IMG/VR virus record: IMGVR_UViG_3300042453_004282
Span: 228-64,227 of that record
Origin: a virus
Lineage: Duplodnaviria; Caudoviricetes
Reading direction: 5' to 3' (one strand)
DNA: 64,000 bases
The translations under genes were made by a program, and so were the position numbers. A model generated the notes under the pieces. The model did not search any database and was not told the origin of the DNA. It saw only the letters and a program-made list of their open reading frames with translations. Shown here one piece after another: positions 300 through 18,820 of the stretch (the first letter of the stretch is position 1; every line of letters begins with the position of its first letter).

Positions 300-442
300 G
301 CCGGGAGGGGCGGGGGCACAGTCCCCCGCCCCATCCTCACAGGATCGCGCAGGAGCCACGATCCGGCGTCCGGTAAGGGTAGGGGTGCGGTGAGGGGGTC
401 CGGTCGTTCCTAGGCGATTTTAGAGGCATTTACGGGCCTTCA

Positions 443-2276: not shown

Positions 2277-2379
2277 AAGAAAAACGCCGGGGGGCCTTGC
2301 GCCCCCCGGCACCCTAGGTTAGGATCCAAGAAGAGGGGCGCACACGGCGCCCCTCGCAAACGCACCACCGGAGGCTCAG
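2277..2379 (+). promoter_or_regulatory. Repeated early-promoter cassette 5
   Basis: TTGCGC 2297-2302, TAGGAT 2320-2325, hairpin GAGGGGCGC-acacg-GCGCCCCTC, GGAGG RBS. Confidence 0.8.
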
Positions 2380-3225: not shown

Positions 3226-3231
3226 CCGGGA

Positions 3232-3269
3232 GGGGGGAGGCCAAAGCACCGGCCTCCCCCCTTTTTTTT
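3232..3269 (+). terminator. Rho-independent terminator closing the GC-rich module
   Basis: GGGGGGAGGCC-aaagcacc-GGCCTCCCCCC followed by a T-run. Confidence 0.85.
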
Positions 3270-3497
3270 GTTCCTGTCTTTTCCGCCGGGTGGAACGCGG
3301 ACGGGGAACGCGGAGGGAAAGCGCGGATGAAAAGCGCGGACGAATGCGCGCAGGAGCCCGCAGGAGCCCGCAGGAGCGACGAACGCACCCCCGAAAGGGG
3401 GACAACCCCACAACGGGGGGCGAGTCGTTTATAGGGCATTTTAGAGGGATCTGGAAGGGGTGCCGGGATTGTGACGCTCAGGGTGGGGGGGATTCGT

Positions 3498-3597
3498 TGC
3501 AGGAATCGTGCCACCGTCGCCGCCTTGCAAGGATCATGCCAGCGCCGAGGCTATGCAAGGACCGTGCCACGAGGCCCTCTGTGCAAGGATCGTGCCA
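3498..3597 (-). promoter_or_regulatory. Four tandem sigma54 (RpoN) -24/-12 consensus sites
   Basis: Minus-strand TGGCACGATTCCTGCA (3498-3513), TGGCATGATCCTTGCA (3526-3541), TGGCACGGTCCTTGCA (3554-3569), TGGCACGATCCTTGCA (3582-3597); consensus TGGCACG-N4-TTGC; exact 28-bp period. Confidence 0.75.
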
Positions 3598-3605
3598 GAC
3601 TTTTG

Positions 3606-3735
3606 TGTGGATAACTCTGTGGATAACTCTGTGGATAACTCTGTGGATAACTCTGTGGAAATGTGGATAACTCTGTGGATAACTCTGTGGAAAACTCGGT
3701 GAGAAACGACTATCAAAATGTGGAAATGTGGAAAA
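3606..3735 (-). repeat. Tandem DnaA-box array
   Basis: TGTGGATAA (reverse complement TTATCCACA) at 3606, 3618, 3630, 3642, 3662, 3674; TGTGGAAAA (TTTTCCACA) at 3686 and 3727; mostly 12-bp period with CTC spacers. Confidence 0.9.
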
Positions 3736-3994
3736 CTGGGACTCCGGACATCCGCCAGAAGGCGCGGTTAACCCCCCCACCCCCAATATATGTGGCACGG
3801 GGGAATCTTACCGTAGGTCACTGAGGCGCATGGAATTTTTTTTCCGGGGCGAAAAAGGGGCAGGATAGGAAAAAATCACGATGGAACTCTGAGGATGTTA
3901 CTGGGCATACCGGGAGAAAAATTTTTTCCGGGGAAAAATCTCCCTATAGGGTCGTCACCTAAATAGTGAGAACCCTTTTTTTTTTCTTAATACT

Positions 3995-6544
3995 ATGGCC
4001 AAATCAGCCTCCACGGATCTGGAACTCATCCAATGTATTGCCTTTGCGGTGAAGGCGTGTAAACAGAAATCGTTCACGGTGCCCACGACGGTATTTCCCA
4101 AGATTGAACGAGTGCGGGGGATGGCCGTTATTGAAGCGCAATTACAGGATAGGAACACGCCCTTTCTCACCTTCGGGGGGATTACGGTGGCGAAGGAACC
4201 GAATGCCGTGGCGGGGATGGGGGCGTCTGAGGCGGATGTGAGCGCCGCGATCACCGCCTCCCGGAATCGGTTCAAAACCGCAGCCGAGAAGTATGTGGCG
4301 CGACCGATTGCGGGGAGACAACCCACGGAGACGGATATTCGAAACGTGTTGGTCTTGGATCCGCAAGCGTATTTCTATGATTTGGTGAATAACTACGCGG
4401 TGGATCTGTCGGATACGTCCTTGCCGAAGCAGCAGGGGGGGTTGGTGTTTTTCTTGGACAAGGACTTGTCCGTACAGGTGACGATTCCCCATGGGTTTCC
4501 CGTGACCGAGAAACTCTTGCAGATCCTGCCGAAGCGGTATCTGCTCTTGAAAGAGTTGCGTGGCGAGGAGTCCGCAGAAGTGGCGGCGCTGACCAAACTG
4601 GAGACGGCTTACAAAAAACTGGTGAAGGCCGAGGAGCGGCTGGAAGAGGCATTAGCCCCACTCCGGAGCATGGGGAGAAAGCCGACAAAGGGGCAAACGG
4701 ACAAGGAAGCAAAGTTGGAGGAGGTGCAGCAACAGATTAAGGAGAATCGACAAGCGGCCACGCCGAAAATGGGGTACATTCGCATCGTCTCCGGGACGCA
4801 GGGGCGGGCAAAGGATTACAGCGCCCTTGTACCCCATCTGCGGCAGAATTTTCCATGGACGCGCATGCTGGGAAGTTATGCGAAGTACAGTCTCTTTCTG
4901 ACGAAGGGGGGAGACAAGATGACGATCCCGGCGACGATCCTCAAGACATGGAACACCGGGAAGCTGTTGAAGCGCGTGGTGGATCTGGAAAATCCGGCAA
5001 AGGACTATGTGATCTATGATCAGTCGAGTCCGTTCACGGAGACCGTGAAAAATGAAGCCCTCGCGCACATCTTGGACAAAATGCAACTCAATGGATTGAA
5101 CGAGGAACTCTTGTCCCCGGTGGACTTGTTTATCGTCAATCGTCGGATGGAACGCGCCATCATGGACGAGATCCAGAAGAAAATCACGAACAACGCGGAT
5201 GTCCTACTGGATTATGTAAACGACACCCCGCAGCAGCCGACGACCTATAAAACCATTCTTCAGCGACATTTTGACGCGGACGATCTGGTCGGGGTTTCGT
5301 TGAAATTGCCAGAAAAGGTTGGATCGGATCCCTTCATGAAAGTGATGGGGGAATATCGCGGGACGGTCTCACAGGATTTGGCGAAAAAAACGGATCCGTT
5401 CACGCGCTTTTTGATGCACCTGATTCCGTCGAAGATGGATGCGATGATTGACGATTTGATCACGATTCAATTCGACAAGTTTGACATTAAACCCCAGAAA
5501 AAATCATGGTCCTACCCGGTCATCTTTAACTATGATACCATGAAGAAATATGGGTTGCAGAATATGCCCTTCAAATTGGAATTCTTCTTGATGACATGGG
5601 ACAAGGCCGGGTTCAACGGCCAATGGGCAAAAAACAACCCGGTGCCGACACCGGGAAACTGGACCGGTGGGTATGGGATGACGGCGGCAAACTTCCTCTT
5701 TTCCATGTATACCGCCTATGACCCGATTGTGAAGGACTTAGCCGCCATCCGGAAAAAGGCGATGGACGAGACGCTCCAGATGCTCCTCCGTACCGGGCAA
5801 GTGTCACCCGCGACGATGAAGATCCCCACCATACAAGCCGCCCAGCGAGAAGCCGAGCGTCTCTTGTCCGCGCCCCGTATTATTGGTCGATTTAAGGGGG
5901 ACGATTCCCCCCCGATCCTGCGTTTCACCCGGTTGGTGGAAGACGCGCAGTTGCGGGACATGGTGACGCGCATCGCGGCGCTGGAAGCCGAGGAAGCCAT
6001 GCTAGAGCGGGAACCCGCAAAAAACCCCGTGACCACCCGGCGCAAGAGTGAAGTGAAAACCTTGCTCAAAGACCTGAGAGCCCAGAGAAATAAATCACAA
6101 ACGAATCGCGGATCTGAAAGCAATACGGATCGCATCTATACGCTCTATCAGGTCCGTGTCATTGAACGCCTCTTGAGCGAATTGGATACCAGTAAGGCGG
6201 GGAAATGGACGGAATTTTTGCGTCAAGAAAATCAACCGCCTCGAAAGGACGGCCCTTTTGCGCGGAAGAGCGTCTTGGAATATATTGACGCACATTATAT
6301 CGCGGTCCAGTTTTCATGGTTCCTGCTTCGGGGAGGACGGTCCCAACATCTGGCCCTGAAGAAGAAGTTATTCTTGTCCGTATTCGGTCTCATCACGAAA
6401 TCTGGGTATAAGTCCTTTGAGACCTTCACCGATGCGGCGGGAAATCTCCAGACGAAAGACATTCTCCGGGTCGCGGTCATCACCCCGGATCAAAAACGCG
6501 CCTATGCGACCTTCAGTAACGCCCCGTATGTGATGTTCTCATAG
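3995..6544 (+). CDS. Large hypothetical protein (849 aa), possibly nuclease-like or internal virion protein
   Basis: Long ORF with coiled-coil segments and an SPVDLF...LVGVSLK motif; function not established. Confidence 0.8.
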   Translation: MAKSASTDLELIQCIAFAVKACKQKSFTVPTTVFPKIERVRGMAVIEAQLQDRNTPFLTFGGITVAKEPNAVAGMGASEADVSAAITASRNRFKTAAEKYVARPIAGRQPTETDIRNVLVLDPQAYFYDLVNNYAVDLSDTSLPKQQGGLVFFLDKDLSVQVTIPHGFPVTEKLLQILPKRYLLLKELRGEESAEVAALTKLETAYKKLVKAEERLEEALAPLRSMGRKPTKGQTDKEAKLEEVQQQIKENRQAATPKMGYIRIVSGTQGRAKDYSALVPHLRQNFPWTRMLGSYAKYSLFLTKGGDKMTIPATILKTWNTGKLLKRVVDLENPAKDYVIYDQSSPFTETVKNEALAHILDKMQLNGLNEELLSPVDLFIVNRRMERAIMDEIQKKITNNADVLLDYVNDTPQQPTTYKTILQRHFDADDLVGVSLKLPEKVGSDPFMKVMGEYRGTVSQDLAKKTDPFTRFLMHLIPSKMDAMIDDLITIQFDKFDIKPQKKSWSYPVIFNYDTMKKYGLQNMPFKLEFFLMTWDKAGFNGQWAKNNPVPTPGNWTGGYGMTAANFLFSMYTAYDPIVKDLAAIRKKAMDETLQMLLRTGQVSPATMKIPTIQAAQREAERLLSAPRIIGRFKGDDSPPILRFTRLVEDAQLRDMVTRIAALEAEEAMLEREPAKNPVTTRRKSEVKTLLKDLRAQRNKSQTNRGSESNTDRIYTLYQVRVIERLLSELDTSKAGKWTEFLRQENQPPRKDGPFARKSVLEYIDAHYIAVQFSWFLLRGGRSQHLALKKKLFLSVFGLITKSGYKSFETFTDAAGNLQTKDILRVAVITPDQKRAYATFSNAPYVMFS

Positions 6545-6548
6545 CCCC

Positions 6549-6577
6549 TTGACACGCGGCATGGTGGCGTCTATATT
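6549..6577 (+). promoter_or_regulatory. Sigma70-type promoter upstream of purA
   Basis: TTGACA-17 bp-TATATT. Confidence 0.75.
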
Positions 6578-6600
6578 CGAGGGGATCTTTTATCTGAGGG

Positions 6601-7668
6601 GTGTTTGGTATGGTGAAGGCAGTTGATATTGTGGTGGATTTGCAAGCCGGGGATACGGGAAAAGGAAAAGTCACCCACCATCTCCTCAACACCGCGACGG
6701 AGCCGTATACCGCCGTCTGTCGTTTCAATGGAGGAGGAAATGCAGGACACACGATCTATCATCACGGAAAGAAATATGTTACCCACCAAGTGCCATCAGG
6801 TATATTTTTTGGGGTTCCTTGTGTTCTTGGCCTTGGGTGTGTGGTAAATCCCCAAGCACTGGCGGATGAAGTTCGTGCGTTGCGGGAAGACGGCTTCACC
6901 GCTCCCGTGTATGTGGATCGACGTGCCCATGTAACCCGTGCCACCCACGTGGAGACCGACCGAAAGGATAGCGCGCATCTCGGGACAACGGGGCAAGGAG
7001 TCGGTCCCACGATGATGGACAAATACGGACGCACCGGGTTGCGTATGGAGCAGTGGGGGCTAGATGCCTCCGTGTTTCGCCAACTTGATATTTCCGTGAT
7101 TGATACTTTTGAGATGTTTCACACGGAATTCACGCCACACACCGTGCTATGTGAAGGGGCACAAGGCTTTCAGTTGGATGTGGATTGGGGAGATTACCCC
7201 TATGTAACCAGTTCCCATTGCACCAGCGGGGCGGTCGCCCTCAACGGCTTTCCTCCGTCCCGATGGAGAAAGGTGTATGGCGTGATGAAGCCGTATGAAA
7301 CCTATTCGGGATTCAAGTTGTTCAACGCCCGCGTGGATATGGAAACTACCTATGCCGCACTACAGACACTGGGGGGAGAAATCGGCGCGACGACGGGACG
7401 GCGGCGGCAAGTGCGCAGTTTGCATTTAGATGATGTCATTCGTGCCATTTATGTGAATGATGTAACCGATGTGATCATCAACAAGATTGATATCATGGAG
7501 GCCGCACACACGGCTGGATATACGAAGGTATACCAGTACAAGCATAATTTCCTGTGGTGGGCCTATGAGACTCGACAGGATTTTGTGGATGCGGTGACGC
7601 GAACCCTTCGGTTGGAGTGTCCCTATCTGCGCACGATCACATGGTCAGATTCCCCCCATGCGGTATAG
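6601..7668 (+). CDS. purA: Adenylosuccinate synthetase
   Basis: GDTGKGK, GGGNAGHT, GTTGQGVGP, EGAQG, YPYVTSS, GATTGRRR and NKID motifs; start may be ATG 6610. Confidence 0.9.
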   Translation: MFGMVKAVDIVVDLQAGDTGKGKVTHHLLNTATEPYTAVCRFNGGGNAGHTIYHHGKKYVTHQVPSGIFFGVPCVLGLGCVVNPQALADEVRALREDGFTAPVYVDRRAHVTRATHVETDRKDSAHLGTTGQGVGPTMMDKYGRTGLRMEQWGLDASVFRQLDISVIDTFEMFHTEFTPHTVLCEGAQGFQLDVDWGDYPYVTSSHCTSGAVALNGFPPSRWRKVYGVMKPYETYSGFKLFNARVDMETTYAALQTLGGEIGATTGRRRQVRSLHLDDVIRAIYVNDVTDVIINKIDIMEAAHTAGYTKVYQYKHNFLWWAYETRQDFVDAVTRTLRLECPYLRTITWSDSPHAV

Positions 7669-7903
7669 AACTCCTCGGCGCGTTCTCGCTCGACTCCGCA
7701 GTCGGTATCGACGATATGAAGAGCCGCTGCTCAAGTCGGTGGTGTTTCAATACTTCTCAACGATTGCCACTGGACTGTTGGTGGTAGCGGTGACCGGACA
7801 GTTTACCGATGGGTTCACCTTACTCTCTCTTGATTTTTTTGGGAAGATGATCTTATACTTTTTGTTTGAACTTGGATGGACTAGCCTTCGGAGACGACTA
7901 TGA
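7658..7903 (+). CDS. Small membrane protein, DUF2061-like
   Basis: Two hydrophobic segments with an LLKS...TG...K.ILYFLFE..W pattern. Confidence 0.5.
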   Translation: MRYRTPRRVLARLRSRYRRYEEPLLKSVVFQYFSTIATGLLVVAVTGQFTDGFTLLSLDFFGKMILYFLFELGWTSLRRRL

Positions 7904-8160
7904 ATGGAAAAGGAGATAGCCCGCGTCCCATGAGTGTTCCGGCTGAAACCTTTGAGACGAACTGGGAACATACCTTCGGCAAGGTACAACGCCTCAAGAC
8001 AGAAATTCTGGAGGACCGCTATCGGCATGCCAGTCAATCCCCAGATTTTCTCACGCAATACCCCGGCTTGACAGGAACGTGGGAGGTGGATAAGTTACGG
8101 TGGGAAATTATTCAGACACGGCGCGGTCTGGACATCGCCCGAGTTCGCGCTAACACTTAA
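7900..8160 (+). CDS. Hypothetical protein
   Basis: ATGA overlap with the upstream gene; MNGKGDSPRP start. Confidence 0.65.
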   Translation: MNGKGDSPRPMSVPAETFETNWEHTFGKVQRLKTEILEDRYRHASQSPDFLTQYPGLTGTWEVDKLRWEIIQTRRGLDIARVRANT

Positions 8161-8172
8161 CAGGAGATACCT

Positions 8173-8265
8173 ATCCCTCATCCCGGAAAAAACAGACCCC
8201 GCAAGGGACGCCGAAAGATTGGTAGCAAGAAGCGCCGCATGCGGCGTGAGCGGCGGAAGCGGTAA
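8173..8265 (+). CDS. Putative 30-aa Arg/Lys-rich peptide with non-canonical (ATC) start
   Basis: AGGAG 8162-8166, then ATC CCT CAT...; reads (M)PHPGKNRPRKGRRKIGSKKRRMRRERRKR*. Confidence 0.45.
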   Translation: MPHPGKNRPRKGRRKIGSKKRRMRRERRKR

Positions 8266-8280
8266 GACCGTCAAGTCCTC

Positions 8281-8309
8281 TTGACAGAAAGTGAGTGATA
8301 TGCTATACT
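8281..8309 (+). promoter_or_regulatory. Sigma70-type promoter upstream of uvsE
   Basis: TTGACA-17 bp-TATACT with TG extension. Confidence 0.8.
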
Positions 8310-8341
8310 CTTGGCATATCACTCACTTTTTTTCTTATCCC

Positions 8342-9295
8342 ATGCCTACCCAATTCGGCTACTGCTGCATTAACCTCACCCTAAGCTCGCACGGCATTAC
8401 CACCAGCCGCACGATGCGCAAAGCAAGTTTTGAAAAGCTGGGGATTGTCCATGCATCACGGCTGGCGCTGGAGAATGTGCAGAACCTCGCACAGATTCTT
8501 CAGTGGAATGCCGACCACGACATTCATGTGTTTCGCATGGGGTCTGGATTCTTTCCATGGTCCAGTGAATATGACATTCGTCAACTCCCGGATTTCCCTC
8601 ATATCTCCGACCTCTTGGCACAGGCTGGTGCCTTTGCACGGGAAACCTCGCAGCGCCTGACCTTTCACCCCGATCATTTCGTGAAGCTCGCTTCGCTGAA
8701 TGACATTGTGGCGATGAACAGTGTGCAGGAGATAAATCATCACGATGAGATCTTCACCTTGCTGGGGTTTCCTCCGTCGCATGTGAATTGCATCAACATC
8801 CATGTGGGGCAAAATTTCTCCCTTGACACCGTCGAGCGATTCATTGCACGATTTCATCTGCTAAGTCCAACGGCACAGCAGCGTCTGGTTGTAGAGAACG
8901 ACGACAAAGCCAACGCCTTTTCGGTGCGGCAGTTGTATACATATCTCTATCAGCGGATTCACACCCCCATCACCTTTGATTACTTCCATCATGAGTTCCA
9001 TCCTGATGGTCTCACCTCACAGGAAGCCGCGCATCTTGCCGCGCAGACATGGGATGTGCGCCCACTGTTTCACTACAGCGAGTCAAAGAATCTCCACGAA
9101 AACATCAACGGCAATCCTCGCGCACACTCTGACTACATCCGCACTCATATCGACGCCTATGGTCTAGACATTGATGTGGATCTAGAGTGCAAGGCCAAGG
9201 AACTGGCACTCTTGTCGTACCGCAAGGAACATGGCCTCTCACCAACGAGTCTTCTCCATGATACTTCCTCTTCTCTTTCTGTTGGCGCAATCTAG
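8342..9295 (+). CDS. uvsE: UV-damage endonuclease (UvsE/UVDE)
   Basis: GYCCIN, RLTFHPDHF, NIHVG, LVVENDD, FDYFHH, HYSES, AHSDY and ECKAKE motifs. Confidence 0.92.
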   Translation: MPTQFGYCCINLTLSSHGITTSRTMRKASFEKLGIVHASRLALENVQNLAQILQWNADHDIHVFRMGSGFFPWSSEYDIRQLPDFPHISDLLAQAGAFARETSQRLTFHPDHFVKLASLNDIVAMNSVQEINHHDEIFTLLGFPPSHVNCINIHVGQNFSLDTVERFIARFHLLSPTAQQRLVVENDDKANAFSVRQLYTYLYQRIHTPITFDYFHHEFHPDGLTSQEAAHLAAQTWDVRPLFHYSESKNLHENINGNPRAHSDYIRTHIDAYGLDIDVDLECKAKELALLSYRKEHGLSPTSLLHDTSSSLSVGAI

Positions 9296-9815
9296 CCTTG
9301 GCCCCGCAGATAGCACCCTGAAGATTGTTCAGCGACTGCTTCCGGTGCAAACACGACAACGAGACACTACCCGGAACGACATCGTCATTCATAACGATGG
9401 GATGAATCTGTCGGCAACAACCGTACATTCTGCATTGAGACATTCACGCCTCTCCTATCATTTTTTTGTGGATAGAAGCGGTCGCGTGTTTCAATTCATG
9501 TCACTGGATCGTGTGGCAGAACATGCTGGGAGATCCAAACATCTGAATACCAAGCAGTGGAATGACTTCAGCATAGGCATCTGTCTGCAAGGATCAAACT
9601 TCGTCGGCTACACCAAGGCGCAGTACGCGAGCTTGAACAAATTGATCCGCAACCTTACTCTGCGGTATAAACACCTCGGCCCCATTCATGTGGTAGGGCA
9701 CAACGAGGTGGCCTATCCGAAAGGACGAAAGTCAGACCCCGGAAAACACTTTGACTGGAAACAACTCCATTATGGCATACGCACCGTACCACAAGCGGCT
9801 CGACGCCGACATTAA
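9258..9815 (+). CDS. N-acetylmuramoyl-L-alanine amidase (Amidase_2) with hydrophobic N-terminus
   Basis: IVIH, SYHF, AEHAG, SIGICL, VVGH...KSDPG motifs. Confidence 0.85.
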   Translation: MILPLLFLLAQSSLGPADSTLKIVQRLLPVQTRQRDTTRNDIVIHNDGMNLSATTVHSALRHSRLSYHFFVDRSGRVFQFMSLDRVAEHAGRSKHLNTKQWNDFSIGICLQGSNFVGYTKAQYASLNKLIRNLTLRYKHLGPIHVVGHNEVAYPKGRKSDPGKHFDWKQLHYGIRTVPQAARRRH

Positions 9816-10860
9816 GCTGGATTTTGATGATGTATTGATGGTTCCACAACCAACCGATATTACATCGCGCAGTGAAGTGAATCTCGTGGCAAATATTTCC
9901 GGCGTCACAAAGAAGACGATTACGGGAGTGCCAATTATTGCGGCCAACATGGATGGAGTGGGAACATTCAGCATGAATGCCGCACTCGCCAAGCATCGTA
10001 TCTTCACGGCGATCACGAAGCATACCACGGTGAACGAGTGGAAAACGATGTTAGAAGCCTATTATCATGATGTGGATCCTATGCTCAATCCTCTACGCTA
10101 TGCCTGTGTCAGTATTGGCATGGGTGAAGACAACGTGGCATATCTTCGTGAGATTGACATGGCGATGTATGATTATGAAATCACCTCGCCGCTAAAAGTC
10201 GTGATTGATGTGGCAAACGGACATATGAAAAAGTTTGCTGCATTTGTGCAGCGCGTCAGAGATGCCTTTCCACATGCCTTCATTATGGCTGGAACGGTGG
10301 CCACACCAGACGCCACGGAACAATTGCTTCTTCATGGCGCAGATTTAGTGCGCGTTGGCATCGGAACTGGCGCCGTATGCACCACTCGTCGTGTCTCTGG
10401 TGTTGGGTATCCTCAATTTTCCGCTGTGATGGAGTGCGCGGAGGTTGCTGATGCGCATGGCGGGGGTATTATCTCGGATGGAGGGTGTGTGCATCCCGGA
10501 GATTTTGCAAAAGCGTTGGGTGCAGGGGCAAAAATGGTGATGGCTGGAAGTATTTTTGCCGGTCACACCCAATCCGAACAGGAAGTTGATGGCGGATGTG
10601 TCACATTTTATGGTATGAGTTCACACGCGGCGCAAGAAAAGCACGGAGAAGTACGAAATTATCGGTCTTCCGAGGGACGAGTAGTTAAAATTCCGTATAA
10701 AGGCGATGTAAACCTGACGGTTTTGGACATTTTGGGAGGAATTCGGTCTGCTTGTGCGTATGTCGGGGCAAGAAACCTGCAAGATATCGACAAATATGCA
10801 AGATTTGTGCGGGTAAACCATCAACTGAACCAAAGTTTGGACGCATACACGATTTCTTGA
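9772..10860 (+). CDS. guaC: GMP reductase
   Basis: KLDFDDVL, IIAANMDGVG, IDVANG, VGIGTGAVCTTR, GYPQFSA, DGGC, FYGMSS, YRSSEG and GGIRSACAYVGA motifs. Confidence 0.92.
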   Translation: MAYAPYHKRLDADIKLDFDDVLMVPQPTDITSRSEVNLVANISGVTKKTITGVPIIAANMDGVGTFSMNAALAKHRIFTAITKHTTVNEWKTMLEAYYHDVDPMLNPLRYACVSIGMGEDNVAYLREIDMAMYDYEITSPLKVVIDVANGHMKKFAAFVQRVRDAFPHAFIMAGTVATPDATEQLLLHGADLVRVGIGTGAVCTTRRVSGVGYPQFSAVMECAEVADAHGGGIISDGGCVHPGDFAKALGAGAKMVMAGSIFAGHTQSEQEVDGGCVTFYGMSSHAAQEKHGEVRNYRSSEGRVVKIPYKGDVNLTVLDILGGIRSACAYVGARNLQDIDKYARFVRVNHQLNQSLDAYTIS

Positions 10861-10885
10861 TAAATAGACGCTGAAACCGGAGCCT

Positions 10886-11083
10886 ATGATGAAAGAATTT
10901 CACACCCCCTACGATCATACACTAGACGAATACACGAAAAATCAGATCAAATACGCCTTTGATGATGTATTTGACGAGATTGACGACATTCGTGAGCGCC
11001 TGAAGAACGATCCTCACTCAGAACTGATCATTGAGTGGGTTCGATATGCCATCTCTAACGTCTTGAAAGACTACACGGAATAA
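10886..11083 (+). CDS. Hypothetical protein
   Basis: GGAG RBS and upstream ATAAATA. Confidence 0.6.
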   Translation: MMKEFHTPYDHTLDEYTKNQIKYAFDDVFDEIDDIRERLKNDPHSELIIEWVRYAISNVLKDYTE

Positions 11084-11089
11084 ATAATC

Positions 11090-11356
11090 ATGCCTACATA
11101 TGAGTATGTGTGCGATGCGTGTGACCATTATTTCACCCGGTTCACCAGTATTAGCAACATGAACCTCGCAGAGGAGGAACCCTGTCCAAACTGTGACATG
11201 ATTAAGGTAAAAAAGGTTATGTTAACTGCCCCCGCAATAGGTGATGCAGTACGCTTGAGAATTCGGCGTCCAGACAACGGTTTCAAAGAGGTTCTCCAAA
11301 AAGTTCATGAGTCTACCCCCGGATCGACCATCAACAGGAACAGTAGTTTCATTTAA
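11090..11356 (+). CDS. FmdB-family zinc-ribbon protein
   Basis: MPTYEYVCDAC...CPNC; usual neighbour of phoH in T4-like phages. Confidence 0.8.
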   Translation: MPTYEYVCDACDHYFTRFTSISNMNLAEEEPCPNCDMIKVKKVMLTAPAIGDAVRLRIRRPDNGFKEVLQKVHESTPGSTINRNSSFI

Positions 11357-11436
11357 CTTTCGTCGTGTGTCCTCACCCCAACACGGTATTTTTGCCGTGT
11401 TGGGGTATTTTTTTACCCTCAACCCACGAGAGACGT

Positions 11437-12204
11437 ATGCCACGCAGAAAACAGCGCCTCAAACTCGTTCCACAAGAACACCTCATGCAGCGAGTCGAAG
11501 AACAAGAATCCAAGCACAAAGTGCGGCTTGCCGATTTGAAGCCGGTGTCCCCCTTAACAGAAAATCAAGAGACCCTGTTTAATCTGTATACTCGCGGCAC
11601 CGTCGCGATGTTGTTGCACGGTGTGGCTGGCACAGGAAAAACCTATATTGCGCTGTACAATGCCTTTCATGAAATTTTGGAAAAATTGACGCCATACAAG
11701 AAAATTGTCCTAGTACGATCAGCCGTTGCCACACGGGATATTGGACATCTTCCCGGTGATGAAAAAGAAAAGGCTGAAGTATATTTGCAGCCCTACAAGG
11801 AAATTGTAAAGGAGCTTTTTCCTCGGTTCGGAGATACCGCATACACAAAATTGAAGGAACAAGGACTGATTGAATTCATGATCACTTCATATGTACGAGG
11901 TATAACATTTGAAAACGCCATTGTGATTGTCGATGAATGCCAGAACATGAATGATCAGGAATTGAACAGTGTGATGACTCGGGTGGGAAACAACACCAAA
12001 ATTCTGTTCTGTGGTGATTTTCGTCAAACCGATCTCCAAAAACGGCACGATGTTTCTGGGCTGAAGAAGTTCATGGGCATTATTGATCACATGCCCAGCT
12101 TCAGACATGTAGAGTTCATGGTGGACGACATCGTGCGAAGCCAACTCGTCAAAGAGTATATCGTCGCACGAATACAATATGAGGATATTGTATTGTCCGC
12201 TTGA
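11437..12204 (+). CDS. phoH: PhoH-family ATPase
   Basis: GVAGTGKT Walker A, RG.TF, IVDECQN, TRVG and GDFRQTD motifs. Confidence 0.92.
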   Translation: MPRRKQRLKLVPQEHLMQRVEEQESKHKVRLADLKPVSPLTENQETLFNLYTRGTVAMLLHGVAGTGKTYIALYNAFHEILEKLTPYKKIVLVRSAVATRDIGHLPGDEKEKAEVYLQPYKEIVKELFPRFGDTAYTKLKEQGLIEFMITSYVRGITFENAIVIVDECQNMNDQELNSVMTRVGNNTKILFCGDFRQTDLQKRHDVSGLKKFMGIIDHMPSFRHVEFMVDDIVRSQLVKEYIVARIQYEDIVLSA

Positions 12205-12229
12205 CAGAGTGAGTATGGGGAGTTAAGTT
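12201..12229 (+). promoter_or_regulatory. Sigma70-type promoter upstream of the exonuclease
   Basis: TTGACA-17 bp-TAAGTT. Confidence 0.6.
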
Positions 12230-12235
12230 TCGTGT

Positions 12236-12919
12236 ATGAAAAGATTCACCCATATCCCTCTACAAGTCGAACTCCCTGAGCTTGAAGCCGTCACCACGGA
12301 TAGTGGACGGGTATACCACTTACCAAACGGTAAGGTATACCCGTCTGCAACGACGGTACTCTCCTTGCATACCAAAGCTGGCATCGACAGGTGGCGTGAA
12401 AGAGTCGGGGAAGAAGAAGCCACGACCCTCTCTCGTCGTGCGGCATCCCGTGGCACGATGCTCCATAATAATGTGGAGCGGTATTTGAAGAACGACGACC
12501 AGTTGACCTTCAAGAGTGTATTTCCTCTTTTCAAAACCAACGAAGAGGAACTATTTACCGCTATTCGCCCAGAGCTTGACAAGATTGACAACATTCGCGC
12601 ACTGGAAAACACGCTATATTCCCATCATTTGCGGATGGCGGGGCGGGTAGATTGCATTGCGGAATATAACAAGAAATTGTCGATCATCGACTTCAAGTCC
12701 TCTTCATCAGAGAAAGATATTGATCACATCCAACATTACTTCATGCAAGGGGCAGCCTATGCCATCATGTTTGAAGAATTGACGCAGATTCCAATCGCGA
12801 ATATTGTGATCATGATTGCCGTAGAAGACGGGTTTGTGCAGGTTATGAAGGGAAAACGAGATGATTATGTGAACAACCTGTTGTTTTATCGGGATTTGTA
12901 CGAATATAAGCATAAATAG
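12236..12919 (+). CDS. PD-(D/E)XK exonuclease
   Basis: YPSATTVL, RGTMLH, AGRVDC, IIDFKSS and Q..AYA motifs; adjacent to phoH. Confidence 0.85.
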   Translation: MKRFTHIPLQVELPELEAVTTDSGRVYHLPNGKVYPSATTVLSLHTKAGIDRWRERVGEEEATTLSRRAASRGTMLHNNVERYLKNDDQLTFKSVFPLFKTNEEELFTAIRPELDKIDNIRALENTLYSHHLRMAGRVDCIAEYNKKLSIIDFKSSSSEKDIDHIQHYFMQGAAYAIMFEELTQIPIANIVIMIAVEDGFVQVMKGKRDDYVNNLLFYRDLYEYKHK

Positions 12920-12945
12920 ACCTACACCTTAACCTAGGACTTCCT

Positions 12946-13467
12946 ATGACTGTTAAGACCCTATCTATTGTGCTGTGCTTTGGGGTATTTTCTCTTGCGA
13001 CCCCTCTACACACCCCAGTAGCACCTCAACCAGACACCGCCTCTCTCGTGGAGAAGTTGAAGGCGAGAGAACAGCAGAAGGAGCTTGAGTGTCTGGCAAA
13101 AAACATCTTCTACGAAGCTGCACAAGAGTCGTATGAGGGAAAGCTGGCCGTTGGCACCGTCACAATGAATCGCGTAAAAAGTGCCGCCTTTCCAAAGACC
13201 GTGTGCAGTGTCGTATATCAACGAGGTTCCCGTGGATGTCAGTTTTCATGGACCTGTGCTGCCAAGCGAGCGAAAATGAATGCCGCACTCTACGCCGAAT
13301 CTCTGCGGGTGGCCGAACAGATCATGGTGGAGGGAATCCTACTGAAGAGCATCAAAAACGCCCTGTACTTTCACAACACTTCCATCCGACCGAATTGGAC
13401 GTTTGCCACGCCAATTAAACAGATCGGAAATCACATCTTTTACGCCCCCAAGAGGAAGGATGCCTAA
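12946..13467 (+). CDS. SleB-like cell-wall hydrolase (Hydrolase_2) with signal peptide
   Basis: CLAKNIFYEA, V.MNRV, VC.VVYQ, CQFSW, ALYFH and IGNHIFY motifs. Confidence 0.85.
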   Translation: MTVKTLSIVLCFGVFSLATPLHTPVAPQPDTASLVEKLKAREQQKELECLAKNIFYEAAQESYEGKLAVGTVTMNRVKSAAFPKTVCSVVYQRGSRGCQFSWTCAAKRAKMNAALYAESLRVAEQIMVEGILLKSIKNALYFHNTSIRPNWTFATPIKQIGNHIFYAPKRKDA

Positions 13468-13702
13468 AAAGAAGGACATAACAGTACACGAGTTACTCAC
13501 CCGGAAGTTCAAAAACTCCGACGAGTTTTCCACATTCATCAAAAATTCCGCAGAACGGAAGAAGATCACAATTATGGAAGAACTCTTGGAGTATTGCGAG
13601 ATGAACCAGATTGATCCCAGTATCTGCGGGGCTCTCATCAATGCTGAATTGATGAGTTTGTTAACCGAAGAGGCTCGCAAGATGAATTTGCTCAAGGGGT
13701 AG
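13460..13702 (+). CDS. gp33: Late-transcription co-activator gp33
   Basis: Size, LEYCE...EEARKMNLL motif and position before gp59. Confidence 0.7.
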   Translation: MPKKKDITVHELLTRKFKNSDEFSTFIKNSAERKKITIMEELLEYCEMNQIDPSICGALINAELMSLLTEEARKMNLLKG

Positions 13703-13703
13703 T

Positions 13704-14285
13704 ATGACCACCATCGAAGCGTATCAAATTTATTTGGCAGTACGTCTTCATTTCACAAACAAAAAGTACGACATCACCCACACGAAAGGACGAGTGCGTG
13801 TCGTTCCGGGGCAGCTTGAAAACAAACCTCGCATGAAGTACAGTCTGGAAAAGATGTCCGTGCGGTTTCCCCGTAAGAAGTTCATCAACTTTCTCGTCGC
13901 GAGTTTTGCAAGGGGAGAAAACCCGCTGTTTTCACCGAATGCGGAAACAAACTATCAACAGTTTGTGAAGTACATGGAGGGGATGTCATACTTTTATGAA
14001 CGGGATCTGCGCCAGCTTCAAACCTCCTGTGACTGCACCGAGGTAGAGGCATTGTGGAGTGGAGAGAACCACCCCGTCATCCTCAAAGAATATCTTGGTG
14101 GGCGTATCCATTTAGAGACATTGATCATTTTGGATCGGCTCTTTAAGTTCTCCACCATATTGAATGAGCGTCTATCCGGTGACGCCGTGTGGGAACCGCT
14201 GTATGAAGTCATGTATAAATACTTGCTGTTCATTAAATTTGACGAGGACAAAGTCAGGATGATTACGCGAAAGGTGTTTGCATGA
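13704..14285 (+). CDS. gp59: Helicase loader gp59
   Basis: AYQIYLAVRLHF, HPVILKEYLGG.I.LETL motifs; between gp33 and gp32. Confidence 0.85.
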   Translation: MTTIEAYQIYLAVRLHFTNKKYDITHTKGRVRVVPGQLENKPRMKYSLEKMSVRFPRKKFINFLVASFARGENPLFSPNAETNYQQFVKYMEGMSYFYERDLRQLQTSCDCTEVEALWSGENHPVILKEYLGGRIHLETLIILDRLFKFSTILNERLSGDAVWEPLYEVMYKYLLFIKFDEDKVRMITRKVFA

Positions 14286-14476
14286 GAAAGAATGTCAGAT
14301 GGGACGATGATGATCACTTTGGAAACAATCGGCCTGTCGAAAAAGACTTGTTCGAAAAGTACAAGAATCGTATCTATGATTATGACGAGGAAGAAGATTT
14401 TCTAGACGACGAATACGATGTATGGGATGAGTGGTACGAAGAACCGCTAGATGATGTATCCGAAGAATACAACTAA
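14282..14476 (+). CDS. Small highly acidic protein
   Basis: ATGA overlap; D/E/Y/W-rich C-terminus. Confidence 0.6.
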   Translation: MRKNVRWDDDDHFGNNRPVEKDLFEKYKNRIYDYDEEEDFLDDEYDVWDEWYEEPLDDVSEEYN

Positions 14477-14500
14477 TACACACTACACAAGGAGCACACA

Positions 14501-15403
14501 ATGACATCGCGATTCTCAGATTTACGCAACAACAGCACGAACTTCGATTCCCTGCGCAAGCAGGTAGAAGACATGTCAAAGACTACCTACGAGAAGGACG
14601 ACACCAGATTCTGGCAGCCCACCGTAGACAAGGCGGGGAACGGATATGCGGTGATTCGCTTCCTTCCGCCACCGAAGGGTGAGACTCTCGCATGGGCGCG
14701 GGTATGGAACCATGGGTTTCAGGGTCCGTCTGGGCGCTGGTACATCGAAAACAGCCTCACCACGATTAACCAGTCTGACCCGGTCAGTGAACTGAATTCA
14801 GAGCTTTGGAATTCTGGCATTGAGTCAAACAAGGACATTGCTCGTGCTCAGAAGCGCCGCCTGAACTACATCTCCAACATTATGGTGATCAAGGATCAGG
14901 CCAATCCGGAAAACAACGGCAAGGTCTTCCTCTTCAAGTATGGGAAGAAGATCTTCGACAAGATTAAGCAAGCGATGAACCCGGAATTTGATGTTGACGA
15001 GCCGATCAATCCGTTTGACTTCTGGAATGGTGCAAACTTCCGCATGAAGATCCGAAAGGTTGAAGGCTACCGGAACTATGATTTGTCTGTCTTTGAATCA
15101 CCCTCACCGATTGCAGACAACGATGAGATCATGGAAGAGATCTGGAACCAGCAGCACTCACTTGCTACCTTCACCGATCCAAAGAACTTCAAGACATATG
15201 AGGAGTTGAAGGCCAAGCTGGATCAGGTACTTCGCGGAGCAAAGCGTCCGGTTACTGCCGATTCCATTGACGAGGATGATGCGGTAGACGCTCCGTCAAT
15301 GAAGTCATCCCCGGAACAGAAGAAGCCCACGGCTTCAAGTTCCTTTGAAGAGGAAGATGATGATGACGCCGTGAGCTACTTCGAGAAGCTCTCTCGCGAA
15401 TAA
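14501..15403 (+). CDS. gp32: Single-stranded DNA-binding protein gp32
   Basis: DKAGNGYAVIRFLP, WYIENSLTT, KYGKKIFDKI, acidic tail ending YFEKL. Confidence 0.95.
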   Translation: MTSRFSDLRNNSTNFDSLRKQVEDMSKTTYEKDDTRFWQPTVDKAGNGYAVIRFLPPPKGETLAWARVWNHGFQGPSGRWYIENSLTTINQSDPVSELNSELWNSGIESNKDIARAQKRRLNYISNIMVIKDQANPENNGKVFLFKYGKKIFDKIKQAMNPEFDVDEPINPFDFWNGANFRMKIRKVEGYRNYDLSVFESPSPIADNDEIMEEIWNQQHSLATFTDPKNFKTYEELKAKLDQVLRGAKRPVTADSIDEDDAVDAPSMKSSPEQKKPTASSSFEEEDDDDAVSYFEKLSRE

Positions 15404-15411
15404 TGCGCAAG

Positions 15412-15442
15412 AAAACGGGGAAGATTTCTCTTCCCCGTTTTT
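15412..15442. terminator. Bidirectional rho-independent terminator
   Basis: AAAACGGGGAAGA-tttc-TCTTCCCCGTTTT between convergent genes. Confidence 0.85.
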
Positions 15443-16035
15443 TATTTGATGTCAGTGGATTCTATTAAGGTGTAGGTGAAACTGTTGCTCACGGCTTCCG
15501 CCTTCTTCATGATTTGCATGAACTGTTCAAAGTGCCTGATATTGGAAAACACTTGACACCCAGCACTCCACCCGTCAACCTGCACGGACACGCCGTTTGG
15601 TGATGAACGGTGAATGTTGATGCCGTACATTCCCTCATCAATGGTCTTCTCATCATAAGTCGTGTCCATGTTTGCATCACGATACACCTTAACTGGCGTA
15701 TTCTGCACGAGCGCCGTGTATTTTCCTTGATGTAGGCCAATTCGATGCGACCGGCGATATTGACCGGGGACAAGACGCGCCACGCCTCTAGGATTCAATA
15801 GTTTTCGCGTCATATAAGTTGTACCCGGATCTGTCGTGCATGGCCAAATATGAAAATTCCACACGCCAGAAACCTTATAGGACAGGGTCATCCAATCATC
15901 AAACTGATTAGTGAGTCGCTTTCCAGTGGCTGAATTTCTTACACCTACGATGTTTACGTCATAGTCCTTGTTGCTATCGAACCATACGTATGCTTTTGCC
16001 TTAACAGCAGCTTCAATTTGTTGTCTAGTAAACAT
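15442..16035 (-). CDS. Putative murein-active enzyme (L,D-transpeptidase-like H...SAGC motif)
   Basis: GINIH...WSAGCQV motif; family assignment tentative. Confidence 0.5.
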   Translation of the reverse strand: MFTRQQIEAAVKAKAYVWFDSNKDYDVNIVGVRNSATGKRLTNQFDDWMTLSYKVSGVWNFHIWPCTTDPGTTYMTRKLLNPRGVARLVPGQYRRSHRIGLHQGKYTALVQNTPVKVYRDANMDTTYDEKTIDEGMYGINIHRSSPNGVSVQVDGWSAGCQVFSNIRHFEQFMQIMKKAEAVSNSFTYTLIESTDIK

Positions 16036-16037
16036 GG

Positions 16038-17951
16038 TTATATCCTCGCGACACGTTTGTCTTGGAATCGTACAAAACTGTTTTCTGCACTACGAATGCT
16101 TGAATGGGGTACGGCTGTGGGTTGCATCATTTGAGGCCGCGTCTGTGGTACGGGAAGATTTGCTACTAACGACGGAGACGCTGGCGGCGGCACAGGCGGC
16201 ATCGTTTCGCGTTCTGCACTAGTCTCCAGTGCATCTGCGACTGACATATCTCTGGCCATCAATCCTGCATCAATTGCAACACTCGCCGCCGTACCAAACC
16301 CCGGAAGGGTTGATGCTGCCCCAGAAGCAATCTCTGCGGTCGCTCCTAGCATGTCTCCTGCGAGCATACGTTCGACGCCAAGGCCCAAACCAACTGCGGC
16401 CCCAACGATTGGTAGCTTTTTCAACGCGGCCTTTCCTAATCCTTTTGCCGCAACTTTAGCGCCTCCCTTGGCAGCGGCCCCCTTGCCAAAGAGATCAAGT
16501 TGATCGGTTGCTTTTTTGCCAGCACCTCTACCTCCTACTGACGCCTTTCCGGGGCCACGTTTGCGTTTTCCACCTTTCCCCGACGCCGAAGTGCCACCGA
16601 ATAAATCTAGTTGCGATGAAGAGCTTTCCTCTTCTCGCTTCTCCGTATCCTTCGTGATTACTTCCGTCAAGGCTTCAATTTTTTGTGCCACCTCAGTTTG
16701 TGCCTTTGTGTTGTCTTTCAGTGCAGCCTCTACTGGCGCCGCTTCGCCGCCAGAAAACATATCAGTCTGTTCTGGGGACGCTTGAAAGCTTCCATACTTT
16801 TTCTGTCTGGGGGATCGCTTTCTTTTCTTGGACGGAGTCACTGGGTTGCCAAAAAGATCCACATCCCCTTCCGTTGCTGGCTGATCGGTGAAAAGATCCA
16901 ACTGCGGGACGGCTGGAGAGGCCACAGAGGCTGCCGAGGCGGCTGGAGAGGCCACAGAGGCTGCCGAGGCGGCTGAGGCGGCTGGAGAGGTCGTAGAGGC
17001 TGCTGCCGGTGAGGCGGCAGCCGTCATTATCTTCGGCGGGTTGAACAGGCTATACTGCGCCGGGTCTCCTGCCGCCGGAATCGGCTTGGGAGCAAGGGTT
17101 TGCCCCTTGAATAGGTCAAGTTGCTCAAAAGTCGGCTGCGCAGCCGGTGGGGCGGCTGGTTCTGGTTTCTTGAACAGATTTTTGATGATCCCGCCAATTG
17201 ACATGCTTGTCTTTTTCTTTTCCACCAATTCGTCCAAGGATTTTCCTTCTGGGGACACGCGACCAAACATGGCGTCTGCTACACCACGCACTCCACCCGA
17301 GGCCACACCCTTGGCGGTGCGCTTGACCATCCCCCCGAAAGATTCCCCTTCTTCTTGCTTCCAGCGCACCCCCGGAAATACTAGGCGCAAATCTGACATC
17401 ACATCCTTTTTCAAATTACCAAGCAACACTTCCTTCGCAGACCTATCTGGCTTCGTATTCGGCCCAGTGTCCATCTGGCGCGCTTCTTTGATAACAGTCT
17501 CTCGAATCTCCTTTTCCTTTTCAAGCTTTTCAATATCCTTTTCTAGCTTGTCAATGGTCTTCTGCTTGACTTCTTTTTCAAGTTTGAAGTCAGCTTTCGT
17601 TGTTTCGATTTCTGTCTTATACCGTTCGATTTCCTGTTGAAGCGCCTCACCTTCGACTTCATTCTTTGCTACCAACTCAGCCAGCAGATTACGAATTTCC
17701 CTGCGCTCTTTCTCCGTTGACCGGTCGCTCTCTGCAATTTTTTGCAGGGTGGTCAGCATCTTCTGGAAAATGAACTTCTGGTCGTCATCAATCGTTAATT
17801 GCCCATCCACACTGACGGTATCCAACGCAGAAGAAATTTTTCCTGCCATAGCTTTGCTATAGTCAAGATTCTTCATGCTGTTGAGTTCAGCAGAATTTCC
17901 GGAAATTGCCTGTTGAATGCCTAACGCAATATCGTCTTTGGTGGGATTCAT
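16038..17951 (-). CDS. Tape-measure-like (gp29-position) protein with repeated QLDLF motifs
   Basis: Coiled-coil N-half, Ala/Pro-rich middle, Gly/Ala hydrophobic segment (KKLPIVGAAVGLGLG...); directly downstream of gp26/gp51. Confidence 0.6.
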   Translation of the reverse strand: MNPTKDDIALGIQQAISGNSAELNSMKNLDYSKAMAGKISSALDTVSVDGQLTIDDDQKFIFQKMLTTLQKIAESDRSTEKERREIRNLLAELVAKNEVEGEALQQEIERYKTEIETTKADFKLEKEVKQKTIDKLEKDIEKLEKEKEIRETVIKEARQMDTGPNTKPDRSAKEVLLGNLKKDVMSDLRLVFPGVRWKQEEGESFGGMVKRTAKGVASGGVRGVADAMFGRVSPEGKSLDELVEKKKTSMSIGGIIKNLFKKPEPAAPPAAQPTFEQLDLFKGQTLAPKPIPAAGDPAQYSLFNPPKIMTAAASPAAASTTSPAASAASAASVASPAASAASVASPAVPQLDLFTDQPATEGDVDLFGNPVTPSKKRKRSPRQKKYGSFQASPEQTDMFSGGEAAPVEAALKDNTKAQTEVAQKIEALTEVITKDTEKREEESSSSQLDLFGGTSASGKGGKRKRGPGKASVGGRGAGKKATDQLDLFGKGAAAKGGAKVAAKGLGKAALKKLPIVGAAVGLGLGVERMLAGDMLGATAEIASGAASTLPGFGTAASVAIDAGLMARDMSVADALETSAERETMPPVPPPASPSLVANLPVPQTRPQMMQPTAVPHSSIRSAENSFVRFQDKRVARI

Positions 17952-18118: not shown

Positions 18119-18820
18119 TTAGACGAAAAAATTGGCGATGTCTTCCAAGGTGAGAGTGTTACTCGTTGAGCACTTCGCGCACTCATAGTTGATGCGGTGT
18201 GTAATCTTTGGCATTGTCACGAAAAACTCTCTCAGTTTCTCAAACTGCTCAGAGGTGAGCGTATCAATGAACTGCACAAAGTCTTCCACAGGCGTACTCT
18301 GGTCGTCAAATACCTCATCTTGGGAATACACCGTGTGAATGCATTCAGCCACGACCCGATAGATCTCTTCAATTGACGCGGTGCGCGTGGACAGCAGTCC
18401 CAAATGCTTCAGCTTCGGGTATTTCATGTCCACCCGCAAGGTGTCGCTCAGGTCAATCGTAGCGCGATGCGCAGGATTTTGGTCAATGACGACATTATTC
18501 ACATTCAAGGTACTCGGTGTTGCGTGTTTACAATTCCCACAGACCAAGGTGAACTCCATCTCTTCGCTGACAGACTTCCCTCGAATTTGCAAAAAGATGT
18601 ACTGTACATCCACCATCGAATGTGATTCACACGACACCACATTCGAAGTACACGCTCGCACGGAGGTGTCAATCGCATGTATAATGTCAGCCGGGTCGTC
18701 ACTTTCTGCGGCCATTAACAACACTTTTTCTTCTTTCATGATAAAGGGACGGAACTGCACTTGCTGCTTGCTGACCGGAAGGGTGACCGAGAAGGTCGGC
18801 AGGGTGTTTAGATTGTGCAT
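18119..18820 (-). CDS. gp26: Baseplate hub assembly protein gp26
   Basis: FRPF..KEEK.LL, YIFLQIRGKSVSE, CxxC pairs, ends NFFV. Confidence 0.9.
   Translation of the reverse strand: MHNLNTLPTFSVTLPVSKQQVQFRPFIMKEEKVLLMAAESDDPADIIHAIDTSVRACTSNVVSCESHSMVDVQYIFLQIRGKSVSEEMEFTLVCGNCKHATPSTLNVNNVVIDQNPAHRATIDLSDTLRVDMKYPKLKHLGLLSTRTASIEEIYRVVAECIHTVYSQDEVFDDQSTPVEDFVQFIDTLTSEQFEKLREFFVTMPKITHRINYECAKCSTSNTLTLEDIANFFV

Follow-up and report, generated by a model that had tools for sequence, protein, structure and literature searches.

A 64,000-nucleotide stretch of DNA (hereafter the window), which makes up nearly all of the 64,227-base IMG/VR virus record IMGVR_UViG_3300042453_004282 (completeness rating 38%), carries two features that are each built from repeated copies of a host consensus motif. 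The first is a control region, here called the hub (3498-3735), in which a row of sigma-54-type promoter sites directly adjoins an array of binding boxes for the host initiator DnaA. The second, 12 kb away, is P0001, a tape-measure-like protein of 637 amino acids encoded on the minus strand (16038-17951), with seven short peptides of the kind that bind the bacterial beta sliding clamp. A sequence-only reading had joined the two into a two-pronged shutdown of host replication, a DNA sponge for DnaA acting together with a protein sponge for the clamp. We instead favor the interpretation, to which we give a probability of roughly 0.45, that these are two separate features of one T4-like lake phage with no evident common function. 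Pfam and PHROG searches of 47 open reading frames (ORFs) identify the window as that of a T4-type myovirus, with matches to the gp59 helicase loader, gp32, the gp26-type hub protein, gp2, gp4, gp48, gp53, gp5, gp25, gp6, gp8, neck proteins, gp15 and the small terminase, and the public sequencing runs in which stretches of it are found are lake and freshwater metagenomes.

The DnaA-box array occupies 3606-3735 on the minus strand and was delimited by motif search, Tandem Repeats Finder (TRF) and direct reading. Six exact copies of TTATCCACA in 12-bp phase (3606-3614, 3618-3626, 3630-3638, 3642-3650, 3662-3670 and 3674-3682) are followed by boxes with one mismatch at 3686-3694 and 3727-3735, and by direct reading the row fades into weaker box-like words as far as 3735. 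TRF reports a period of 12 with 8.3 copies over 3606-3701. The whole window holds 26 matches to the box with at most one mismatch, as against 15.2 +/- 3.8 in shuffled sequences, and none of the 100 shuffles reaches 26. The four sigma-54-type -24/-12 sites (3498-3597, minus strand), recognized by consensus match, TRF and direct reading, are spaced 28 bp apart at 3498-3513, 3526-3541, 3554-3569 and 3582-3597, and all point to lower coordinates. All four read TGGCAY-N5-YTGCA, with GG at -24, GC at -12 and the exact spacing of a sigma-54 promoter. The pattern TGGCAY-N5-YTGCW occurs six times in the window as a whole, for which 0.35 matches would be expected, and no shuffle out of 100 reaches six; four of the six are those at 3498-3597, and TRF gives this row a period of 28 and 3.6 copies.

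P0001 was characterized from its ORF translation, its architecture and a structural model, and its seven clamp-type peptides were read from the translation. They are QLDLF at residues 277-281 (17109-17123, minus strand, as are the others), QYSLF at 299-303 (17043-17057), QLDLF at 350-354 (16890-16904), DVDLF, which lacks the glutamine, at 363-367 (16851-16865), QTDMF at 395-399 (16755-16769), and two further copies of QLDLF at 447-451 (16599-16613) and 484-488 (16488-16502). Position 17123, at which the sequence-only reading had closed its joint claim, is the first base of the first QLDLF. The available passages of a report on the Mu protein MuC (PMC12867686) give the clamp-binding consensus as QL[SD]LF and its Mor/C-family form as Qx[D/E][L/M]F, and state that the MuC peptides QHDLF and QPDLF bind the Escherichia coli clamp and that a leucine-to-alanine change abolishes binding. 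The four exact QLDLF copies together with QYSLF and QTDMF place P0001 by its sequence in this motif class (QL[SD]LF / Qx[DE][LM]F).

The number of motifs in P0001 is far from random. The pattern Q.[DS][LM]F occurs six times in the protein, at most twice in any of 20,000 shuffles of it, and once in all the other open frames of the window of at least 100 amino acids (34,318 residues, all frames), and seven of the nine phenylalanines of the linker fall within motifs. A recent DNA repeat as the source of the four QLDLF copies was ruled out: their codons differ from copy to copy, so that it is the peptide, not a DNA repeat, that has been kept. All seven motifs lie in coil in an AlphaFold2 (AF2) model, with predicted local distance difference test (pLDDT) values of 30-40, that is, in an accessible segment, and the linker that holds them is rich in Ala, Pro, Ser, Gly and Lys. 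The motifs recur in the nearest relatives: the full-length proteins P0005, P0009, P0008 and P0040 have 3, 3, 2 and 2 of them at positions that do not align, counts that were reached by 0, 0, 1 and 0 of 5,000 shuffles respectively, and the tape measures of three viral contigs (L214, L215 and L217) likewise carry them. Among the P0001 homologues the motif is kept while its surroundings vary. Most of the family has none: of 154 proteins compared, almost all being family matches, 145 are devoid of motifs, as are the tape measures of the syntenic relatives G001, G002 and G004. Because they are scattered in near relatives and missing from most of the family, the peptides behave as an accessory short linear motif, and their distribution points to one that was gained, kept and multiplied in a single sub-lineage, in a segment dispensable for tail building. 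The raw material of the sequence-only reading has therefore held up: the DnaA array with its six perfect and two one-mismatch boxes, the multi-QLDLF protein with its four copies and three variants, and the multivalent use of host consensus motifs in both, as in the sigma-54 row, are all present in numbers far above those of shuffles.

The gene for P0001 directly follows a gp26-type baseplate hub gene (18119-18820, minus strand; PF12322, E = 1.1e-53; phrog_150) within a module that has gp2, gp4, gp48, gp53 and gp5 nearby. It is directly followed by a gene for 197 amino acids (15442-16035, minus strand; phrog_3000, and also the C-terminal part of an 'endolysin' PHROG), and the counterpart of this product in cyanophages is a single longer gene. 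Residues 514-582 of P0001 match the long gene that comes after gp26 and before the tail and gp5 genes in T4-like phages of Synechococcus. A phmmer search returned 1,744 relatives, and the aligned family has a helical, coiled-coil N-terminus, a variable center, a glycine-rich hydrophobic segment and a conserved C-terminal tail. In the AF2 model of P0001 the N-terminal helices (5-260) are confident; coil follows over 262-405 and 439-513, separated by a helix at 407-441, and further helices span 514-581. Hydropathy peaks at 508-532, and the C-terminal region consists of hydrophobic Gly/Ala-rich helices with the conserved tail, so that the protein combines a helical, coiled-coil portion with a membrane-type helix. 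In PHROG it matches families that bear the names peptidase, endolysin or tail-associated lysin.

The closest structural parallel is the tape measure of T4. The available passages of a recent preprint (bioRxiv 10.64898/2026.03.06.709160) describe T4 gp29 as a coiled coil, a proline-rich region and a transmembrane helix that leaves the tube on contraction and forms a conduit for the genome, 'the rest of the TMP' (tape measure protein) being translocated with the genome. P0001 is likened to gp29 by layout only: both are encoded in the hub and baseplate module and have an N-terminal coiled coil, a linker and a membrane-type helix. Unlike gp29, P0001 has no counterpart of the helical-bundle domain, carries its hydrophobic helices near the C-terminus and shows no detectable sequence similarity, and whereas those passages of the preprint mention no clamp motifs in gp29, P0001 has seven. 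An accessory, host-directed motif embedded in a tape measure and used at infection is also described, in the passages available to us, for mycobacteriophage TM4 (PMC1796659); there it is a folded peptidoglycan-hydrolase motif that acts on the cell wall, whereas the motifs of P0001 are short and linear and their target would be the cytoplasmic replication machinery. MuC, a proven clamp binder, resembles P0001 in being a phage protein with more than one near-consensus clamp-binding motif; it is a transcription factor, small and folded, that is synthesized after infection and whose two motifs are terminal (PMC12867686, as far as its available text goes), whereas P0001 is a 637-residue virion protein of tape-measure type with seven internal motifs in a disordered linker.

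From these parallels we infer a mode of action in which the linker enters the cytoplasm, binds the host clamp and affects replication. As the tail fires, P0001 would precede the DNA out of the tube, its hydrophobic helices would insert into the inner membrane and, if the T4 model applies, its linker would reach the cytoplasm, where the motifs would grip the host beta clamp locally at the site of genome entry. Such a grip could tether the entering DNA end to clamp-loaded DNA or oust the partners of the clamp there. A complex prediction of residues 268-495 of P0001 with the E. coli beta clamp in two copies, run without controls, scored 0.08 against a mark of 0.34 and is evidence neither way.

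The hub would work independently of P0001, as a docking site for host factors with four sites for sigma-54 holoenzyme beside a graded DnaA-box row, a layout that would nucleate a DnaA filament. DnaA and sigma-54 polymerase are most likely recruited to it so that the phage can control its own early transcription or replication start, and the soaking up of DnaA would be a side effect at most. A graded row of strong and then weak boxes is the layout that nucleates a DnaA filament at oriC, and this likeness favors docking for the phage's own use over pure titration. Clusters of DnaA boxes on chromosomes include the co-oriented box rows of oriC as well as datA and DARS of E. coli, and the hub resembles these in having close, co-oriented, high-affinity boxes followed by weaker ones. 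It differs from them in standing on a lytic T4-like phage, in having no AT-rich unwinding element and no identified site for integration host factor or DnaA-trio, and in the sigma-54 sites that abut it; lytic T4-like phages have no need of DnaA.

Arrays of both kinds recur in other phages. Rows of three or more perfect DnaA boxes with a 12-bp phase were found on at least 120 viral contigs, and among the matches listed the arrays have 3-10 boxes and the contigs a G+C content of 28-66%. A second tandem array with a period of 13-40 bp lies within 500 bp in 31 of the 111 non-redundant loci listed, compared with 41 of 647 control windows of the same loci, and a flanking ORF matches a DNA-metabolism PHROG (helicase/primase, O-like initiator, RecE-like, RusA or Sak) in 28 of 80 loci, a manual count over the first 80 of the at least 120. 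Tandem sigma-54 consensus sites likewise occur on at least 120 viral contigs; among the matches listed the clusters comprise 2-7 sites, mostly 25-30 bp apart, and in 111 of 115 loci they lie between genes. Nine of these 115 listed loci, and none of 540 control windows, have at least two perfect DnaA boxes within 600 bp. Since the two kinds of array recur and pair in other phages, the hub of the window appears to be one instance of a recurrent phage control hub.

Several of the loci are of interest in their own right. In seven of them (L242, L274, L275, L310, L312, L323 and L349) two perfect DnaA boxes in tandem, spaced 11 bp apart, stand within 600 bp of a sigma-54 row, and in L242 and L275 the pair is placed inside the row, with a C-rich word upstream of it and small co-oriented genes following. 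Judged by its sequence, this combination of box pair and sigma-54 row appears to be a recurrent and undescribed control-region design. Others (L092, L101, L105, L110, L127, L130, L139, L153, L158 and more) have five-box DnaA arrays followed about 30 bp on by six or seven 13-bp GATC repeats, a layout reminiscent, on these phage contigs, of the 13-mers in enterobacterial oriC; the arrays adjoin genes for a RecE-like exonuclease, a RusA-like resolvase, a single-stranded DNA-binding protein, a DNA methyltransferase or a phosphoadenosine phosphosulfate (PAPS) reductase. The 5,612-base virus record PQ006258.1, from a rodent sample, matches 3618-3673 of the window at 91.5%, which suggests that a near-identical DnaA-box row is present in a genome of microvirus size too.

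A number of findings weigh against our interpretation of one or the other feature. No co-oriented gene follows the sigma-54 sites of the window, whereas the downstream ORF is co-oriented with the cluster in 68 of the 86 other-phage cases listed; the 217-nt stretch downstream of the sites (3270-3486, minus strand) folds no better than its shuffles (z = -1.7); and no upstream activator site was identified, so that a sigma-54 promoter has here its sites and not the downstream gene or RNA and the activator site that go with them. A co-oriented box cluster is likewise the one mark of a DnaA-dependent origin that the hub possesses. No strong AT-rich unwinding element lies beside the array, the lowest 60-bp window between 3200 and 4100 having 38% G+C in a genome of about 47%, and no initiator or helicase-loading gene stands beside it, the flanking genes of 281 and 849 amino acids matching no replication family in Pfam or PHROG. 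As to P0001, a linker that remained in the periplasm could not meet the cytoplasmic clamp. The sequence of P0001 matches neither T4 gp29 nor any model in Pfam or NCBIfam, and a profile search of the PDB with its family alignment gave only weak coiled-coil noise (E > 0.1). Because gp29 and the curated families are not matched, the tape-measure identity rests on position and architecture, and we call the protein tape-measure-like, not a proven member of the family.

A further finding of this kind raises the question of which clamp the motifs serve. The DNA polymerase of the syntenic, 99%-complete relative G001 (831 amino acids, phrog_262, E = 0; gene at G001:C1:137147-139642, locus L228) ends in ATLDDLF, which resembles the motif, so that the partner of P0001 could be the gp45-type sliding clamp of the phage itself. 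This C-terminal peptide is presumably the epitope of the clade for its phage clamp, and it helps to separate host-clamp from phage-clamp motifs. The absence of the glutamine from the DVDLF copy in P0001 and from one LDLF peptide in P0008 fits a phage clamp too, and clamp epitopes of the T4 family are short, hydrophobic, acidic and C-terminal according to the available passages of PMC2988020. The position-1 glutamine, however, is kept in six of the seven P0001 copies and in all ten counted in P0005, P0008, P0009 and P0040, and it is the hallmark of the bacterial consensus (PMC12867686, in the passages cited above), unlike the polymerase tail of G001. The P0001 motifs are moreover internal, whereas the known gp45 epitopes are C-terminal (PMC2988020, same passages). 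An incoming tape measure would also precede synthesis of the phage clamp, and a set of seven late-made decoy epitopes would be a rival to the phage polymerase and late sigma factor. The conserved glutamine, the internal position and entry with the virion favor the host clamp, though none of the three is decisive, and we regard the phage clamp as an unlikely partner.

The Q-x-D-L-F peptides might alternatively serve some other partner, such as a periplasmic or membrane protein used in entry or a phage assembly factor, with a convergent likeness to clamp motifs. Tape measures do contact the host envelope and phage exclusion proteins, Imm binding the T4 tape measure, and the T4 model places the proline-rich region between coiled coil and membrane helix, where it could be outside the cytoplasm (bioRxiv 10.64898/2026.03.06.709160, available passages). 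Four of the copies in P0001, on the other hand, are the exact clamp consensus, and the variation allowed in the others (any residue at the second position, D or S, L or M) is that of proven clamp binders (PMC12867686, in part). The motif is also missing from most members of the family, and is therefore not needed for tail assembly. We hold another partner to be quite improbable, and continue to prefer a local grip on the host clamp.

The hub itself depends on whether its two halves belong to one molecule. To its left lies a block of small plus-strand genes with 66-67% G+C (1-3265) that is closed by a strong terminator a little to the left of the hub, and G+C is 66-67% over the first 4 kb, 51-54% at 4-10 kb and 46-49% over most of the window, with a local peak of 55% at 50-52 kb. 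The 28-bp repeats could then be iterons that form, with the DnaA boxes, the origin of a foreign high-G+C element, or else the contig could be a chimera joined at a shared DnaA-box repeat; in either case the sigma-54 sites and part of the array would be foreign to the T4-like phage. Origins of iterons and DnaA boxes are found in P1 oriR, RK2 oriV, pSC101 and lambdoid phages, and the hub shares with them a row of 17-28 bp direct repeats beside DnaA boxes, a layout that also stands beside many phage DnaA arrays. It differs from them in having no adjacent Rep- or O-like gene and in repeats that fit the sigma-54 consensus exactly.

Public contigs of four runs (X2, X3, X7 and X10), from four studies, were compared with the window at this join. 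Those of X3, X7 and X10 are long and about 95-97% identical, cover 1336-3635 and resume rightwards at 3664-3669; the left side of X7 is in two pieces with a gap at 3237-3291, and the right-hand contig measures 9.5-9.6 kb in two of the three runs. The right-hand contigs run from the array into phage genes, which ties the right half of the array firmly to P0002 (849 amino acids; 3995-6544, plus strand), the first gene to the right of the hub, and to the phage genes beyond. The contigs break within the array, and the join of the 67% G+C block with the sigma-54 sites to the T4-like part is thus not independently bridged, which also counts against our interpretation; searches of metagenome contigs with P0002 and with a 22-base word beside the array returned no contig, and hence none to bridge the hub.

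A foreign origin or a chimera would account for these breaks in three of the four runs (three studies), for a contig of X2 that has the same array between unlike, AT-rich flanks, for the drop in G+C from 66-67% to 47-54% at the hub, and for the lack of any counterpart left of 6600 in syntenic relatives, and DnaA boxes beside iteron-like arrays are common (the 31 of 111 listed loci given above). A 48-bp perfect repeat would, however, necessarily break a 31-mer assembly whatever the true join, and the depths to the left and right are within about twofold in all four runs (33.5/17.4, 18.1/22.2, 28.6/23.1 and 5.1-5.7/4.1-4.5). P0002, although firmly linked to the phage, itself has 54% G+C, so that the fall is graded. 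All four repeats fit the sigma-54 consensus at both dinucleotides and in exact spacing, sigma-54 clusters pair with DnaA boxes in other phages and never in the control windows (9 of 115 listed loci against 0 of 540), and no initiator gene is recognizable by Pfam or PHROG. On balance we consider a foreign iteron origin or chimera unlikely, and the join of the high-G+C block and its sigma-54 sites to the T4-like genes probably real.

Syntenic relatives share the order of the genes between a PurA-like gene and the tape measure, and the region left of 6600, having no counterpart in them, makes the hub, P0002 and the high-G+C genes a lineage-specific block. Queries with P0001, P0002, the gp26-like protein and the 281-residue protein of the high-G+C block found no close relatives among viral contigs, and the block at 1-3265 was found in no relative and has no relatives in viral contigs.

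It remains to weigh the joint shutdown that the sequence-only reading proposed, in which the array would titrate DnaA while the multi-motif protein titrated the clamp, so that host initiation and elongation were shut off together. Both arrays fit host consensus motifs far from chance, 8-12 boxes per genome copy would supply many high-affinity sites in a replicating phage pool, and over-expressed MuC, with its two clamp motifs, is lethal to E. coli (PMC12867686, available passages). The protein half of the proposal is not supported by the nature of P0001, which sits at the tape-measure position: as a structural protein with few copies per virion, delivered in those few copies and, if T4 is a guide, made late, it would be a poor bulk sponge for the clamp at entry. 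In the same passages of the MuC report, occupation of the clamp by Mu blocks regulatory inactivation of DnaA (RIDA) and leads to over-initiation, the opposite of shut-off. The DnaA sponge fares little better, for the arrays of other phages are enriched beside replication genes and iteron-like repeats, which suggests use and not sequestration of DnaA, and docking for the phage's own purposes fits at least equally well.

The link between the two prongs finds no support in their distribution. None of the three motif-bearing contigs has a DnaA array (these records hold 5-12% of a genome), no frame with two or more motifs occurs in the 120 DnaA-array loci among the matches listed, and the 99%-complete relative G001 has neither the array nor the tape-measure motifs. 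All of the records compared except G001 are fragments, and the negative co-occurrence is for that reason weak evidence. We judge a joint shutdown to be very unlikely, and as far as the fragmentary data reach the idea adds little at present. The Mu connection to RIDA suggests a different link, hijack in place of shutdown, in which the virion-borne sevenfold clamp array, multiplied by the number of copies per tail and entering together with the DNA, would locally block the Hda-clamp step of RIDA in the manner of MuC, and the ATP-DnaA so preserved would fill the strong and weak boxes of the hub beside a poised sigma-54 polymerase and fire a phage replication start or early switch. If true, a T4-type phage regarded as 'DnaA-independent' would carry a virion device that tunes the host initiator; by analogy with Mu this can be conceived, but we would give it hardly any weight, and our preferred interpretation remains that of two separate features.

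Phage proteins with clamp motifs (MuC), tape measures with host-directed motifs (TM4) and clusters of DnaA boxes on chromosomes and plasmids are already known. A literature search found no paper that joins 'tape measure' with 'clamp-binding', and a search of titles and the starts of abstracts found nothing on phage DnaA-box arrays as decoys or on such arrays in T4-like phages. If the linker does grip the clamp, a structural protein injected with the genome would target host replication from the very start of infection; tape measures would thereby gain a new function, and clamp-targeting peptides, which are of interest as antibacterial leads, a new route. The hub matters in another way: perfect landing sites for the host initiator and for sigma-54 persist in phages supposed to need neither, and with the same building blocks present in hundreds of uncultured phages, insight from one culturable member would explain many genomes.

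Between the array and the start of P0002 lies the rest of the gene-free control region (3736-3994), which has a C-rich run and A/T tracts, and an Rfam search of 3100-4100 gave no match at the gathering score. Within it, about 30 bases at 3936-3980 on the minus strand may resemble the upstream half of one phage single-subunit RNA polymerase promoter fused to the downstream half of another. This putative promoter-like stretch points at the DnaA array, and the window encodes no single-subunit RNA polymerase. P0002 belongs to no family and its relatives are viral hypothetical proteins only; look-alikes among restriction endonucleases score 0.85, an unconfirmed lead, and its Atlas model has a pLDDT of 0.38.

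The high-G+C block contains, besides five small plus-strand genes, the closing part of a sixth, which by eye resembles the metallopeptidase end of ArdC (HExxH) and has no family match. A near-identical cassette precedes each small gene, made up of an A-run, a G+C hairpin, a TAAGAT -10 element, a second hairpin and a ribosome-binding site, and the first hairpin of the cassette has a -35-like TTGAC in its loop. The homologues of the 281-residue protein of this block are all uncharacterized.

Further to the right, a short adenylosuccinate-synthase-like gene (355 amino acids, 6601-7668) has a GMP-reductase-like gene nearby (9751-10860); the 355-residue protein scores under every NCBIfam cut-off, for PurA and PurZ alike, and both genes are kept in syntenic relatives. 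A cluster of glycosyltransferase and methyltransferase genes (44481-47119 and 51970-54633), which includes a protein of 887 amino acids with two glycosyltransferase domains, lies amid the tail-fiber genes and may modify virion proteins or the host surface.

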